Virus genome (UHGV): UHGV-0162385
Strand: one strand, 5' to 3'
DNA from: a virus
Length of the DNA stretch: 34,455 bases
The position numbers and the translations under genes were made by a program. Below, piece after piece: positions 15,823 through 24,216 of the stretch (the first letter of the stretch is position 1; the number at the start of each line of letters is the position of its first letter). The notes beneath the pieces are model-generated. The model saw nothing but the letters and a program-made list of their open reading frames with translations. It was not told where the DNA came from and did no database searches.

Positions 15823-17726
15823 ACGCCTTAATAGATAGTTGGACTACTGCTTCTGGATGAGTTTGAACTACATCTAGGTAATGATAGTTACGGATTACTA
15901 CGCCTAGACTAGAACGATAAGTAGTATCATCATAATCTACAGAAGAACCAATCCAATTACTAATAGCGACAAAGCTAAAATTTCCCATTAGGATAGTATC
16001 ATCAGCTACCATAGTGCTGACGTGCAATGGCATTTCATCTAGCAACCATTGAGTATCAGCAAAACGCATACCTTCAGCTAGTGCAATTCCGGCTAGTATT
16101 CGATAGGAATGGAGTCTGACGCAATTTAGCGTAGGTTACTGGACTAACGATAGCGATACAATCACGGGATTTAACGTTAGCAGTTAGTAGTTTTGCAAAT
16201 GCTGCTTCGATATCGGAATCTGCGATAACACCAGAAGCTGCGGTTTCTACTTTAGAAGCTTGTGCTTCAACAACGTCAACTACTGCTTTTTCTAGAGAAA
16301 CAGCTACGTTTTCTAGTAGAACATCGGTGATGTAACGTTCGATATTAGGACTAGATAGGATTAGGCTACGGGTTAGTGGAATTGAACCAGCAAATAGTTT
16401 TGGACGCATAACGATTTGATCGAAAGATGCAACGGATTCTTCAATCGCTTGACCTTCTTCATAGAATTTGAAGGATGCTTTAGAATCGATACCAGTTAGA
16501 CGTGGAATAGTAAATTCACGGTTGGTCATACCAGAATAAACTTTAACACCCATACGACCTAGGATTGAATCTGGAAGTAGTGGTTGGATAAAATCATCTG
16601 CATAGTTAGTTTGAATTGCACCTGCTGCGGTAACAGTGGTGGTATTTGCACGAGCTTGTGCTAGTTCACCAGCTTGTAGGGTAAAACCACGTTGACCTTG
16701 TTCTAGATTTTCTAGAGCGGATTTATCACCTTTAATTGCTTTAGCTAGTGCTTCGATAGTACGGACTTGTTGAGTCATTTTGTCTTCCTTAATATTAAGT
16801 TTATTATGTTTTTGTGTCTCGATTTCACGTTTAAAATCTTCGACGCTTACGTTATTATTTATTGCTTCAGTACTGTCAATATTAAAAACTTTAGCAATAC
16901 TTTCAATTTCACGAATACGGGATTGATTCAATTCTTCAGCTTTATCATCTTCAATTGCTTTCAATTCTGCATTAATGTTATTTAGTTCTTTTTCAACTTC
17001 CATTTTACGGCGAGCTTTTTCAAGTGAGCGTTTAGCTTCTTCTAGATCGCGTTCTTCTGGTAGTTTTTCTTCTTCATCTTCTTTAGATTCAGATTCAATT
17101 TCACGCACTTCTGTTTCTTCAACTTCAACCGCTTTTTCTTCGGTTTCTACTGCTTCAACTTCTTCGCGTTCAACTTTATTTTCTTCGTCCATGACAATTT
17201 CCTTAAGTTGTTCACTATCTTTATTTATGCTTCGACCAACACCTACTTTATTGTCGGCAGGACAACTAACCATACTTAATTCATATGGTTCAATCTTAGT
17301 TACCATTAGATTATTACCTTCAAAATAATAATCACGAATGTTATAACCGAAAGATACTTTAGTTAGTACGCCTTCTTTTACTTGTTGATACTTCTGATCT
17401 GCAAATTCAGTAGCACTAAAACGGACGCTTGCACGTCCTACGCGGTCTGAATCAATTCTAGCATTCTCGACTACACCGATTAACCAATCCATATTGTGAT
17501 TATATAGGAGTGGTGCACCTGTATTTAGTCGAGTAAGGTCTACGCTATCAGGAGTAGTAACAAGAATTTCATTGTAGATTTGTCCATTGATTTCACGTTC
17601 TACGGGTTGCTCTGACATAAATGCAATTTCTACTACGCGTGAATCATCATCAATAGAATTAGTAATACTTTGAATATTAATTTCACGCGTCTGTTTCATC
17701 GCTTCCAGTTTTATTTGATTGCTCAT
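15821..17726 (-). CDS. Prohead protease (HK97/S78-type) - acidic coiled-coil scaffold - HK97-fold major capsid protein, single ORF; C-terminal MCP part out of frame (15821..16069)
   Basis: N-terminus has LLYNHNMDWLIGVV, KVSFGY and ELSMVSCPAD, matching HK97 gp4 blocks HDTSKVLG, GMSFGF, EISLVAFPAYP; Glu-rich heptads in the middle; C-terminal part has capsid-like sequence continuing in ORF 15821..16069. Confidence 0.7.
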
Positions 17727-17779: not shown

Positions 17780-17801
17780 ACGGCCGGGTCACGGCCGGGT
17801 C
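17780..17801. repeat. Perfect 11-bp GC-rich tandem duplication (acggccgggtc x2) with hairpin potential
   Basis: Seen directly; contains self-complementary cggccg twice; spans the portal stop codon, ~55 nt upstream of the protease/capsid start. Confidence 0.5.
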
Positions 17802-19196
17802 TCGGCAATAATTTCTGCCTTGCTCTTAAGACCATTTTGTAGCATAAGAATTTCATATTGGGCATCTTTCAATGGGTCTAAACTGATTTTACGTTGACCG
17901 TAAATCTGTACTGATAATAGTTTGTCAAAATCACTAAAACGTAACCCTAATGAATCACCATTATTTAGTAATTCTAAACGCATCCATAACTTATAAAGTG
18001 GTTTTAATACTTTTACTTTTAGTTGGTTAGTACGTACTTGAAATGTATTTTGCTGAATCTTCTCACTCAAACGAGCGGCACTATAGGAAGCATTAGATGT
18101 ATCACCTGTTAAAGTTTGCTTAGTAATACCTAATCCCATACTAATTAATGTCATTTGTTGATCTACATATTCACTAATACCATCTGTTGCAGCACTAGGT
18201 TTTAGATCTTTTACACGTTGACCTGGTTGTAGTTCGACAATTGCACCAGGTTCCATCACTTCAGTTTCGAAGAATTGAGTACCAGGAGTTGCATTAATAT
18301 CTGTATCGTCATTATTAGATACATCATTTTCGATAAAGCCCATGAACGCCGAACCAATTTTCTTAGTAACTAATGAAGCCTCTAGGAAACTATCCAATTC
18401 TTTAAGCAAATCTTTAGTATGGATAATATCAGGTAGACCACGTTGCTGATTTGCAAACTGTGGTACGAAATAATGCAGTACTTCATCTGCTGGTACACGC
18501 TCTGGTAGTGCATAATCGTAAGTATAGTTTAATGGATTCTTATGCATGAAATAATATGCAATCGGTTTACCAAATTGATTAAATTCGATACCGATTACTA
18601 ACATAACGACCATCATCAAAGAATTGATTATTATTAACTGGTACACGTACTGCTTCAATTAGTTCAATACGTAGTTGACCATTGATAGTATGAATACGTA
18701 CAAAGGCTTCACCATTGATTGAGCGTTCTAATTCAAGTAAATTTTGGAAAGTACTGAAATCTAGTTCACCACGTACATCAAATACTTCGGGATTTTCAGA
18801 CCATGCATAAAAACGTTCTTCAAGTTTTTGTGACATATCAATATTATCTTGCTCATTTTCAAATAGATGTAAGTCTGGGCGTAGATATAGACCTTCACTA
18901 CCTGCTACGGCGTTCGCACTTTCGGTAAAATACTTTTTAGCAATTGGGTTATTAAGTGCCAAATCACGACTTTCGATCATCAGTGCTGGAAGCTGTTGGT
19001 TAATTACGGCATTAATATCTAAGCCAGTATAGGATGCACCTAGACCTAAAGCACTACGTACTGCACTACTAGTACGGATAGCATTTAGTTCACGCTTCAT
19101 AGTACCATTATTAATCAACTTATCACGTACCTGTACTGGTTTAGGAGGCTGTACTTTAATGGCAACTTCTTTATTTTTCTTAAATGGATTCCACAT
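17789..19196 (-). CDS. Portal protein, lambda gpB family, split into two out-of-frame ORFs (18579..19196 and 17789..18658)
   Basis: ESRDLALNNPIAKKY resembles lambda B ARADDLVRNNGYAANA; IGIEFNQFGKPIAYYFMHKNP resembles GVQINDSGAALGYYVSEDGYP; fragments overlap by 80 nt in different frames. Confidence 0.8.
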
Positions 19197-19697: not shown

Positions 19698-21667
19698 TTA
19701 ACGTTTGAAATAGTTCTTACCAGTACTCTTAGTTTGAGCAAAACCAAACTTTTTACGTCTCTGTACTGGTTGTTCTATATATTTATCTTCATCTATATTT
19801 ACTTCTGAAGTATCTATATCTTTTTTATCTTCTATCTTTTTACGTTGGTTGGCATCATATATACGTAGTTCGGCAAATGGATTATTACCTAATGTACTTA
19901 AACGCCACTCAATTGCTACTAAAGCATACGCAAGACAATCTAACATTTCGTTACGGTCTAGATTGCTCTTACTCTTTTTCTCCCATACATAGCGACCACC
20001 TTTGAATACTCGTTTCTCACTGGTCAACTGAATGAAATAATCGTCGGGTAGATTACCACTGAAATAGATATTAGTACCGAATGTTCCAGCTTCATCATGT
20101 ATTGCTTGTTGTACTAACTTCATAATTGTATTTTTACTTTCACAACTATTAAGTATGATTAACTCTTTACCACCAGCTTTACTTTTCTTGAATAATTCCT
20201 GTGTACCATTACCTTTAATTGGTCTTAGTAGTTTCTCGCCATATGCATTGTACTTATTACAGATACGATAGATTGTATGTGTAGCGTTACCGTTACCTGA
20301 GTCTATGAAGTTACCAAAATTACGTAATGGCTTACCTGATACAGTCTTGAATGGATACTTTAGATAACGTGCCAATTCTTCATATGCTGGTGATTCTACT
20401 TTAGTAGTATCTACGGCACTGAATATACGATGATCTAATACATAAACCTTCTTCTTATTGTCAGTAATACCTAATGTAGTAGTCTCGATCCTATCTAATT
20501 GTTGATCGCTGCCTGTGAAAATTCCGGATAACATCATCGGGGATATTTTTAATATTAAAATCAAAATCTCTTAGGTTCTCTAAAATAGTTAAATCGATTT
20601 GTTTATTTGCTTCATCTTCATATGGTAAACCGTAATGATGTATTATAAAAAGTTTGAAGGTCAAAGTTTGCAAAGCTATCACTAAAATCTTGTACAATCT
20701 TTTCGATAGTAGTTAGTGGACTGTAAAGACGTGATATATGAAAGCCTGCATAGTCTGTTACTTCGGGGCGTGTCGCAATCCAACGACCATTAGCTACGGC
20801 AGTATGTCGTTGTGCTTCAGTGAATGGTTTATCACACTTAGGACAATGCAGTTTTGCACCCTTCGATACTGCAATCTTCTTACCGTTCTTAGGATCTACA
20901 GTCCAGGTGAATCTAACGTTAGCCCATACAATTTCATGTTCATGATTACAGTGCGGACACGGTACAAAATACTTACGCTGATCACTCTTAGACCATTCAA
21001 CCATTACGGGATCTGTTGGATGTACTGGCGTTGATGCACTCATAATCAGACTATCGGCAAACGAAGCTGCACGCTGGTTAGCCAGTGCAATCGGATCACC
21101 TTCTTCAGTTTCTACTGCACCTGATATCTCATCGAGGAATAGATACTTTGTAGTGACACTACGTAGTGTAGCTGGTGCACCCAACGAGGCAAAGTAAATC
21201 ATAGTACCATCTTTCATCTCGATCTGGTTCTGGTCGTTCACGGCGTTCTTATCGGTCTTGCGTGTCACTAAATTATCTAGTACTGAACACTGTTTGATAC
21301 CTTGTTCAAATACACCCGTTTTATATTTCTTCTTCATCTCACCAGTGATTGAAGCATGTAACATATTCGATGGGTTATTATGCATCAGATAGTAAGATGC
21401 ATATGTCAGTATTGAAGTCTTGAGGATCTGAGCACTAGAAACAAATACCGTTTTACGAATGCTTGGATTAACAATTATATCGAGGGGATCGCGTTGGAAG
21501 GGAAATAAGCGTACGGGACTTCCATTCATTGGACCTGAAACAAATTTAATGTTCTCTTCGGTCCATTCACTGGGTAGAATCTTGCGAGGCGGAATTATCG
21601 CCTGATTCGCCTGACTGAATATCTTCGTTAGTTTCGTCTTTAAATCTTTCTTCATATTTGAAATCAC
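19698..21667 (-). CDS. Terminase large subunit, lambda gpA-like, interrupted by two frame changes (ORFs 20618..21667, 20491..20697, 19698..20564)
   Basis: LFPFQRDPL, VPCPHCNHEHEI, LHCPKCDKPF and GSDQQLDRIE match lambda A blocks LPFQRAIM, ACPHCGEEQ, YLCEHNACV and GIDSQLDRYE; total length ~640 aa as in gpA. Confidence 0.85.
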
Positions 21668-22088
21668 CTAGTTCTAATAATTTATCATCTATATATTCTT
21701 GTAGTTTGTTTTTAATAGCCATGCCATCATCACCAACCTTTGATAGTTCCATATATGCCTGTACTGGCAGAGTACGGAATGATTGACGTATACGTGAACA
21801 ATATGCAGCTAGTTCATCAGCTACTTCATTTACATAAACTACTTCACCAATGGTCAGTTTAGTTTCAATTTCTTGTTGGTCGGCACGGGCTTTAGTAAGT
21901 CTGATTTCTTCGCGTAGCTTTTCACTTTTCAGTGCTGGGTCGCTCTTACGCAGTGGTGTGATTTTATTCTCAACTACCCACTTAAAAACATCGGCATCTG
22001 GTGCGGATAGGTCTAATCCTTCCGTTTGCCAACGACTAATAACAGACATGTCATATCCATATATCAGTACTAAATCTTTTAACATCAT
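21567..22088 (-). CDS. Terminase small subunit, lambda Nu1-like
   Basis: N-terminal LKDLVLIYGYDMSVISRWQTEGL resembles the Nu1 DNA-binding block KKQLADIFGASIRTIQNWQEQGM; followed by coiled-coil region; directly upstream of TerL. Confidence 0.7.
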   Translation of the reverse strand: MMLKDLVLIYGYDMSVISRWQTEGLDLSAPDADVFKWVVENKITPLRKSDPALKSEKLREEIRLTKARADQQEIETKLTIGEVVYVNEVADELAAYCSRIRQSFRTLPVQAYMELSKVGDDGMAIKNKLQEYIDDKLLELGDFKYEERFKDETNEDIQSGESGDNSASQDSTQ

Positions 22089-22146
22089 GATAGTTTTTAC
22101 CTTTTAATTGTTTGTTAAACTTTGATTATTTTTTATATAAAAAAAA

Positions 22147-22293
22147 GAGATCGCGGCGGAAACTCCAGGTATTTGCATATCACAAGGGGAACCTAAAGTC
22201 AATATTTTTTTTAAGATATTTTAAAAATAATTTAAATAATTTTTTATTTTATTCTATAGTACAGACACCTTACCCCCCTGGGGGGGTGGGGGG
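22147..22293. other. Candidate cos region upstream of terS (GC-rich islands in AT-rich intergenic DNA)
   Basis: gagatcgcggcggaaactccagg at 22147..22169 and C6-T-G7-T-G6 at 22273..22293 within the 220-bp intergenic region before the Nu1-like gene; position as for lambda cos. Speculative. Confidence 0.2.
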
Positions 22294-22308
22294 TAGGTAT
22301 GCCATCAG

Positions 22309-22653
22309 TTATGAACCAAATGGATAAACAGGATGGTATGACTCTAGACGGTATTGCACTAGCACCACCGTGTCCTTATCACCTAACACTTCACGTCTTA
22401 CGATTTTAAAATATCCTTCATGAATATATTGTTCTTTGTTATTCCCTTTAATAGATAGTTTGAATAGTTCATTATTGAATAGATAATAATCGAGAAAGTT
22501 GTCTTCTGTGTAGTTAATAGTTAGATCTAATTCAGTACAGACAATACCATCAGTGGATACTGTGGTAATGGGGTTAGCCCATTGTGTAATCTCTTTAACT
22601 TCTTTACCATCTACTTCTACAGTTAATGTATTACCAGTGAAAATATCTTTCAT
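22309..22653 (-). CDS. Small protein with tail-tube-like domain (paralog of the major tail protein N-domain)
   Basis: 114 aa; TLTVEVDG...LDLTINYTEDN...LGDKDTVVLVQY parallels the TVNYLPD and GDKDAVV blocks in 11056..11516 and 13828..15075. Confidence 0.4.
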   Translation of the reverse strand: MKDIFTGNTLTVEVDGKEVKEITQWANPITTVSTDGIVCTELDLTINYTEDNFLDYYLFNNELFKLSIKGNNKEQYIHEGYFKIVRREVLGDKDTVVLVQYRLESYHPVYPFGS

Positions 22654-22684
22654 AATTATATATCCTTATGTTGTTGTTGGTGTA

Positions 22685-23072
22685 TTATTTATATGCTTCA
22701 TTATCTCTGTGAATAAACTCACTAATCAAATGTACTAACCTATATCCGTATATACTATTGTATTCGACTATCTCGTTAACCAGTTCTTTTAGTTGTTGTA
22801 CTTTACTCTTTTCATATCCACTGTAATTGATTGCACTATAATTAGTAGAGCCAATCTTTACAGTATTATTATGATAGTTATATGTGATGTACTTATGTTT
22901 CAGTACAAAATAGTCCTTACCAATATGAATATCGATATAGTGCGGGGAGTTAATGCGGATGTGTATATCTATAATATCATCATAGTCATGGCGACTATAT
23001 TCATATCCTCTTAAACCATTACTATCAATTACAGTTGTACCGTTTAACGAATTGCATTACTACTTCGATCAT
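22685..23072 (-). CDS. Hypothetical protein, frame-disrupted near its 5' end
   Basis: ATG at 23072 with SD gaggtga gives MIEVVMQFVKRYNCN then stop; a ~110-codon open frame without start codon follows. Not in the ORF track. Confidence 0.3.
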
Positions 23073-23338
23073 AAGTTCACCTCATATTTATTGTACTATC
23101 CAGGAAGGATTTTATTATAGAAGAATGTAACGATGGGGGGAAGTTGGTTAGATATTGTGGAAGTACTTTAATCAGTTCGGTATCAATACTTTTTATTGTA
23201 TCTTCATTGAATGATTCACCGCATTACAAATACCTTATCATCAGTTACCATAATACATAATCTTTTATACATATATCTTTCTAACATTGTTTATCCTTAT
23301 ATGAAGCGTCGTTGTGACGCTTCATTAATTATTATCAT

Positions 23339-24216
23339 TTATACAACTTTGTATGATTTAGTTACATACTCTTTAAAATCTTGCTCATCGGCATTTTTGG
23401 GGAATTCCTTCTTATACTCGGCGTAGTATTCCTGTGCTTTAGAATTCATTTTACCTTTAGTATTTAGGTGAAATTCTTTACCATTCCATTTAGCATTGAT
23501 GGGGTAAGTAGTGCGGTACTCTTCGCTATAGGCTCGTAAAAACTCGTCTACGTCTGCCAGTTCGGGATTCTTTTTAATCAACTGTTGATAAACTGTATCC
23601 TTTAGTAAGGCTGCTGGTAACTTCTTGTTGATCACATTGTAGCGGCGGCGTTCATCGTTCTTTGCATCGACAATAACAACTTCGAAGATCCTATTACCGT
23701 TCGGCTTAAGCTGTTTTGTCTTAGGTGCTGGTACTGTTGTATCTGCCTGTAATGTAGCTAACAGTTCTTCTACACTATCAAAAGTAGTAGATTCTTTTAA
23801 TGCCGATTCTAAGAGCTTCTGTGCTTCTTTAATTCTTTCGGAATGAATGGTAGATATATACTCTTTTATATCTTCCAGGCGGCTTATCAGTATATCTACG
23901 TCTTTTTCTGTGACTTTTGCCAGTGCATTGCGTCCGGCAGCATCGGCGGTTAACATTCCGATATGAAAGTCATCATGTAACACTGTCGAGATCATTTTCG
24001 ATGTAATGCTTCTAATGCTTGACATAGTACAGCCTCGTTTGGTTTAAGTAACAATTGTGCACAATCTGTTAGCTTCGTTAGGTTTTCAGGTGAAATATCC
24101 TTTATAGCATGGATCATATCAGCACTTAACCCAAATTTACCTACTAACATCTCGCTTGGTAATTTTCTAACTATATCAATATATAGTACATTTAGTAAAT
24201 GCAAATTATCTTTCAT
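23339..24216 (-). CDS. Hypothetical protein with N-terminal helix-turn-helix-like segment (ORFs 23992..24216 and 23339..24025, probably one gene)
   Basis: LVGKFGLSADMIHAIKDIS has an HTH-like pattern; fragments overlap by 34 nt out of frame; C-terminal part basic and coiled-coil rich. Confidence 0.3.

Follow-up and report, generated by a model that had tools for sequence, protein, structure and literature searches.

Where does an uncultured prophage with a lambda-like terminase cut its DNA? The prophage considered here fills a window of 34,455 nucleotides (UHGV virus genome UHGV-0162385), the whole stretch of DNA that was analyzed. It is a 35% GC prophage of Escherichia coli integrated within yegD; an element of that composition is unusual for this host. 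Essentially all of its phage genes lie on the minus strand, and 'upstream of terS' therefore means higher coordinates throughout. A sequence-only reading of the window expected a cos site just upstream of terS and singled out two GC-rich islands there, either of which might be the nicking site or a terminase binding element. Its description of the region matches the sequence exactly: both islands are where it placed them, and the 176 bp of the intergenic region outside them are 19.9% GC. The first island is of mixed sequence; the second is the homopolymer block C6-T-G7-T-G6. Coordinates of these and all other features are collected in Table 1.

Table 1. Features of the packaging locus and its surroundings. 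Coordinates are those of the window unless a relative (L number) is named.
Feature	Coordinates	Strand	Details
Intergenic region upstream of terS	22089..22308		220 bp; between terS and ORF 22653..22309
Island 1, gagatcgcggcggaaactccagg	22147-22169		65% GC
C6-T-G7-T-G6 block, CCCCCCTGGGGGGGTGGGGGG	22273-22293		90% GC
E1, TAGGTTCCCC	22186..22195	minus	cosQ-like; starts 30 nt upstream of E2
E2, GAGTTTCCGCCGCG	22152..22165	minus	GC-rich core in island 1; candidate cosN
E3, T8-ATAT-A6 AT-rich dyad	22129..22146	strandless	I2-like position; perfect palindrome 22129-22144
E4, TTTAACAAACAATT	22106..22119	minus	candidate terS recognition site at R3-like position
terS, Nu1-type small terminase	21567..22088	minus	173 aa, intact
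terL, gpA-type large terminase	19698..21667	minus	Pfam GpA_ATPase (5e-51) and GpA_nuclease
Indels in terL	20633-20658 and 20525-20527
Indel in portal gene	18592-18594
Variable cassette	22166..22850	minus	685 bp; right-arm end near the probable cos; BLAST breakpoints
Accessory ORF	22309..22653	minus	114 aa; cassette cargo
GC hairpin including the C6-T-G7-T-G6 block	22260..22299	minus	inverted repeat; arms 22271-22278 and 22288-22295
Cargo hotspot	L018 1846-2784; L024 2021-2677; L025 325-1251; L013 1793-3615; L022 1-682; L023 1097-2804
Large serine recombinase and yegD insertion	32091-34405; L009 9936-12229		528 aa; prophage inserted in yegD next to it

The expectation of a cos site depends on the type of terminase, and the premise of a Nu1/gpA-type enzyme holds up. 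The terL gene has both GpA domains. The terS product falls in PHROG 57 (phrog_57; E 2.4e-14), the same PHROG that lambda Nu1 matches, and a profile built from 11 members of the terS family aligns with lambda Nu1 across both the N-terminal helix-turn-helix and the coiled coil (hhalign; probability 95%, E 3.6e-8). Against Pfam Phage_Nu1 (PF07471), the window terS reaches 18.4 bits and misses the gathering threshold of 30, and 4 of the 11 family members match this model at E<=0.01, the best with an E of 1.1e-7. We hold to the homology despite the sub-threshold Pfam score because the profile comparison supports it. An AlphaFold model of terS is confident only for residues 1-48 and gave no significant Foldseek match in the PDB, and phmmer against the PDB returned nothing useful. 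On the strength of the domain and profile matches, the terminase of the window is of the Nu1/gpA type.

Which relatives can serve for comparison? Of 5,426 complete E. coli genomes, 20 carry a related prophage. Among cultured phages, neither megablast nor blastn with the region gave a DNA-level match, and in tblastn searches with terS of three subtypes the closest match was Jilinvirus at ~27%; the nearest cultured relative of the family's terS is that of Enterobacter phage Arya (L031/L030), at ~27% identity. A scan of genome contigs using the terS alignment had no match. A profile search did recover terS relatives at 30-64% identity, most of them adjoining an intact terL and portal gene. Escherichia phage DCP80 gave the top terL match and was set aside as a 141-kb record without useful context. 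Integration into yegD is through the large serine recombinase that the prophage itself encodes; next to this gene, a 45% GC ORF (33725-34405, plus strand) is probably the yegD remnant, as annotated in L009.

Of the two islands, the homopolymer block is by far the more striking. None of 100 dinucleotide-preserving shuffles produced a match to it, even with 3 mismatches allowed, and of the only four runs of at least six G or C in the 34-kb window, three lie within it. The earlier reading took such a sequence to be a likely place for length errors. An independent relative, L004 (99.1% identity over 2.6 kb), carries the block unchanged, which marks it as genuine and not a read or assembly artefact.

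Could this block be where cos is nicked, or an element bound by the terminase? Its GC-rich, partly symmetric sequence lies ~185-205 bp upstream of the terS start, near the 190 bp that separate cosN from Nu1 in lambda. Its distribution speaks against such a role. The window and L004 alone have the block, in both cases together with the cassette that carries the 114-aa ORF. It is missing in L001-L003 and L014-L016, whose terS or terL is 97-98% identical to that of the window, in all 20 related prophages of complete E. coli genomes, and in every distant relative with an intact terminase. Because relatives with a nearly identical terminase do without it, we take it not to be cos, and rate any part for it in packaging as very improbable. 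Of the proposal that either island might serve, what survives is island 1, which is the core of the conserved arrangement described below.

The block is best read, from its sequence context, as the 3' hairpin of a moron-like accessory cassette that has nothing to do with packaging. It starts 10 nt past the stop codon of the 114-aa ORF and forms a stem-loop in an RNA fold of -25.3 kcal/mol. As in phage morons, a promoter-like site (22713..22684; 10 of 12 consensus positions match), an ORF and a GC hairpin form a cassette that is swapped among near-identical prophages: in L009 and L014, an unrelated 249 bp takes the place of its 685 bp. None of the 5,426 complete E. coli genomes contains a match to the cassette itself. 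Among the 20 with a related prophage, homology to the window begins at ~22165/22166 in 13, and the other 7 show a gap there. The 114-aa ORF has no match in Pfam or PHROG, nor by tblastn in phages. Other upstream variants likewise have a hairpin after the last gene before the conserved cluster. We also considered the block as an intrinsic (rho-independent) terminator and rejected it: the stem-loop is present, yet no T-run comes after it on either strand and a terminator scan was negative. Unlike a canonical intrinsic terminator, the cassette hairpin has no U-tract. The most eye-catching feature of the locus is very probably irrelevant to packaging.

Several further observations concern this variable side of the locus. 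An open frame of ~115 codons with no ATG, GTG or TTG start (~23070..22694, minus strand) follows a 15-codon ATG ORF in another frame and may be a frameshifted gene; from the cassette boundary at 22850, L009 and L014 have a diverged homologous version of its C-terminal third. The slot just upstream of the cluster is a cargo hotspot, and in L024 and L025 the cargo lies between the putative cos and terS. It often consists of opposite-strand genes for PLD-nuclease, OLD-family ATPase/TOPRIM or DUF488/SLOG-type proteins, which look defence-like; the cargo of the window is the 114-aa ORF. Farther out, a palindromic hairpin, ATGAAGCGTCGTTGTGACGCTTCAT, at 23301-23325, directly after the stop of a 228-aa ORF (23339), is the sole terminator-like call within 21900-23500.

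Island 1 behaves very differently from the block: it is probably, as its conservation suggests, the core of a cos site built like that of lambda. Upstream of terS in ~25 divergent lineages, with terS identities of 30-64%, we find a cluster of four elements, E1 to E4. E1 has the consensus WAGGTWCYCC and is followed by a spacer of fixed length and unconserved sequence, and then by E2 (consensus G-N-AGTTTYS-GCC-S-CG). Counting from E2, 13 of 13 lineages with unrelated flanks have the E1 sequence WWGGTWC at -28..-31, where the chance expectation is ~0.002 per sequence; the full E1 10-mer occurs once per locus. E2 is the best-conserved element, with a mean pairwise identity of 0.68, compared with 0.53 for E1 and 0.33 for the spacer and far flank. 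In the window, 77 nt separate it from the terS start. An AT-rich dyad, E3, is centred at +28..+31.5 in 12 of the 13 lineages, although its sequence differs among them, and the E4 motif follows at about +50..+60.

If the cluster belongs to the packaging genes, then its sequence should lead back to them. We searched IMG/VR with a pattern made of DNA only, AGGTWCYCC-N17-23-GAGTTTYSGCC. It returned 18 matches. Fourteen new ones directly precede a terS/terL homologue, as does a 15th, the known L004 contig. The same pattern also recovered prophages of Kluyvera ascorbata and Enterobacter sp. In genome contigs, the motif matched 71 times, mostly by chance in unrelated phyla, and only two of these matches came with terminase genes. 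None of the fetched contigs ends at the cluster. The earlier expectation of a cos just upstream of terS thus gains support in the form of a cos-like cluster, with island 1 at its core, that travels with the terminase family.

A cluster directly upstream of the first late gene, as it is in most lineages, might instead regulate the late operon of packaging and head genes, as an activator or operator site combined with an unusual promoter, with cos located elsewhere. The phased elements with ~30-bp spacing and the dyad are typical of operators, and in the window a promoter-like TTGACT-17-TATGCA overlaps E1. That sequence is not kept in other lineages, however, and a scan of the coding strand between E1 and terS found no sigma-70-like promoter. 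Because the motifs occur once per prophage, they mark no regulon. Moreover, in L024, L025 and L038, 0.6-1 kb of opposite-strand genes separate the cluster from terS while E1 to E4 stay together; a cluster that remains intact when terS is displaced is an autonomous DNA site, not a terS leader. We consider the regulatory explanation unlikely.

A replication origin, made up of iteron-like repeats next to an AT-rich region, is a far weaker candidate. It would account for the phased short motifs, the AT-rich dyad and the 100-bp AT-rich stretch of the window. That stretch is part of the variable cassette, however, and the cluster is tightly linked to terS and terL, not to replication genes. Nor do E1 and E2 look like iterons: they differ and do not co-vary. 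We had in fact tried them as repeats of one site and rejected this, since in some lineages TTC in E1 becomes TAC while E2 is unchanged. There is little reason to believe that the cluster is an origin.

The order and spacing of the elements point to cos. In lambda, cosQ (GGGTCCT) occupies -30..-24 relative to the nick and is followed by the GC-rich cosN and a dyad, TTTTC...GAAAA, centred at +28; the junction reads ...ACGGGTCCT (cosQ)-23 nt-/GGGCGGCGACCT/CGCGGG-TTTTCGCTATTTATGAAAA..., with R3 near +49. When the first base of E2 is set on the lambda nick, cosQ falls on the E1 columns, the lambda dyad on E3, and R3 on about E4. The two systems therefore share, besides homologous terminase subunits, an element of 7-10 bp at -30, a GC-rich core at +1..+14, a dyad of a T-run and an A-run, and a specificity-type motif, in the same order and at nearly equal spacings. 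As reported for lambda-type cohesive ends, the left half of the family core is more conserved than the right. There are also differences. The arrangement is more compact than lambda's, with 77 nt from E2 to terS against 190 nt from cosN to Nu1; it has one candidate terS site where lambda has R3-I1-R2-R1; and we saw no convincing IHF site at the window cluster.

Is this resemblance a matter of descent? Our comparisons indicate that it is one of layout, not of demonstrable homology. E1 (AGGTTCC) agrees with lambda cosQ (GGGTCCT) at 4 of 7 positions. The lambda cos has no match to a profile HMM of the family in nhmmer, and with a full-length PWM of the family it ranks 330th of 97,192 positions. 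A layout rule in three parts asks for GGT.C at -30..-26, a G/C count of 9 or more among the 14 positions +1..+14, and an AT-rich dyad with its centre at +27..+32. Just two places in lambda satisfy it, the cos junction being one of them, but the rule was written after lambda had been inspected. Applied strictly, it passes 7 of 13 family members on all three criteria. A side observation concerns phage Arya: its record as deposited has GGGTCCT, the sequence of lambda cosQ, 24 nt before the last base. The genome paper is silent on termini, and we gave this record end no weight as support for cos.

We infer from the layout that the cluster (22195..22106, minus strand) would be a compact lambda-type cos, with the nick site in E2, E1 as cosQ-like, E3 as I2-like and E4 as R-like elements; we put the probability of this reading at about 0.6. 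What the sequences show directly is the type of terminase, the conservation and spacing of the elements, their link with the terminase genes and the lack of the C/G block in relatives. The gpA-type terL would make staggered nicks in E2 or at its edges, and the resulting cohesive end would be GC-rich and about 11-14 nt long. E3 would be the counterpart of I2. The Nu1-like helix-turn-helix of terS would read E4 to start packaging, which would proceed toward terS and terL, and E1, placed where the preceding genome copy ends, would act in packaging termination like cosQ.

A variant of this reading keeps the cluster as cos and moves the nicks: they would fall symmetrically in the AT-rich dyad E3, with E1 and E2 as binding sites for terminase or accessory proteins. 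The gpA-type nucleases cut sites with two-fold symmetry, and E3 is the sole clearly symmetric element, one whose dyad character is kept while its sequence drifts. L047 is one of several lineages in which the arms of the dyad start from the final CG of E2 (CGAATTAT..ATAATTCG). The lambda precedent runs the other way, for the dyad I2 is left uncut and it is the GC-rich element before it that is cut. An overhang of A and T only would anneal poorly, and conservation is stronger in E2 than in E3, just as lambdoid phages conserve cosN. Nicking in E3 strikes us as doubtful, and we prefer E2 as the site of the nicks.

What would E4 be for? In lambda, 21 and N15, cosQ, cosN and I2 are conserved and cosB carries the specificity for TerS (PMC4669245). 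The window family shows the same division: E1 to E3 are constant and E4 falls into classes that track the helix-turn-helix subtypes of terS. The class RCATAACA goes with terS GFDVSVISR[DE]W in 5 of 5 lineages, and CCGMAMCG with terS GYDESTVR in 3 of 3; E4 in the remaining lineages is AACAAACAA. This is the pattern to be expected if terS reads E4, although plain linkage of the two could give the same pattern. N15 offers a close parallel, with a simple cosB whose one critical TerS site stands at the R3 position (PMC4669245): the window family likewise has one candidate site at about that position and keeps its equivalents of cosQ, cosN and I2 across specificity groups. N15 retains lambda-like cosQ and cosN sequences, which the family does not.

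The junctions of the upstream variants also fall at E2. Four upstream modules are found in E. coli (that of the window and L004, the L001 type, that of L013, and that of L014 and L009). They are unrelated to each other and each carries its own E1. In all four, the switch to the conserved terS arm comes at the left edge of E2, the join of L013 lying inside E2. Homology among the four variants breaks at 22165-22174. Such junctions would arise if phages exchanged DNA through cohesive ends that they share; a plain boundary between conserved and variable sequence would look alike.

What does the cluster offer? The signature E1-N20-E2-dyad-E4 locates the probable packaging site of a family of enterobacterial prophages that is uncultured. 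It helps to set genome ends, to predict the mode of packaging and to spot packaging-specificity groups. The general understanding of cos packaging is unchanged by it.

Whether the E. coli copies still use the site is another matter. Aligned with the intact terL of Erwinia sp. E602, the window terL needs three reading frames, with two 1-nt indels; the portal gene needs two frames against its intact Erwinia homologue, with one 1-nt indel. The gpA-type terL of the window is thus split rather than a single intact ORF, although both domains are present. All E. coli copies examined have the first of the terL indels (TTA-C-GGT) as well as the portal indel, whereas the second terL indel (TATCCGG vs TATC-GG) is missing in L014. 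Extra frameshifts occur in L004, L009, L013 and L014. Outside E. coli, terL is mostly an intact ORF of 559-657 aa, with L022 also split. By this evidence from the reading frames, the E. coli prophages look defective or decaying and their cos may be a relic: with frameshifts in both terL and the portal gene, it is possibly out of use. Alternatively, the frameshifts in terL and the portal gene may be programmed.

A different explanation takes the E. coli copies to be more than decaying phages: hitchhikers that bear a cos and rely on a helper phage of matching specificity to package them in trans. In its favor, terS is intact and the cos cluster fully conserved in these copies despite the shared frameshifts in terL and the portal gene, and the copies of diverse strains share the yegD site and are 96-99% identical. 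We think hitchhiking improbable. If it were true, the subtype-specific E4 would delimit packaging-specificity groups recognizable from sequence alone.

Some minor observations concern the rest of the window. In the related E. coli prophage L009, RefSeq annotates a 'tRNA-OTHER' at 16605-16673, roughly 26728-26796 of the window; a tRNA search of the whole window with ARAGORN and Rfam found none, and no other Rfam RNA family matched at the locus or anywhere in the window. A GC-rich 8-mer, CGGCCGGG, occurs twice, 11 nt apart, between the portal and protease-capsid genes (17781-17799). Another such pair, CCGCCCCG and CGGGGCGG, stands 49 nt apart just past a 665-aa ORF (29354-29410). Paired GC-rich 8-mers are rare in an element as AT-rich as this one, and they may be hairpins.
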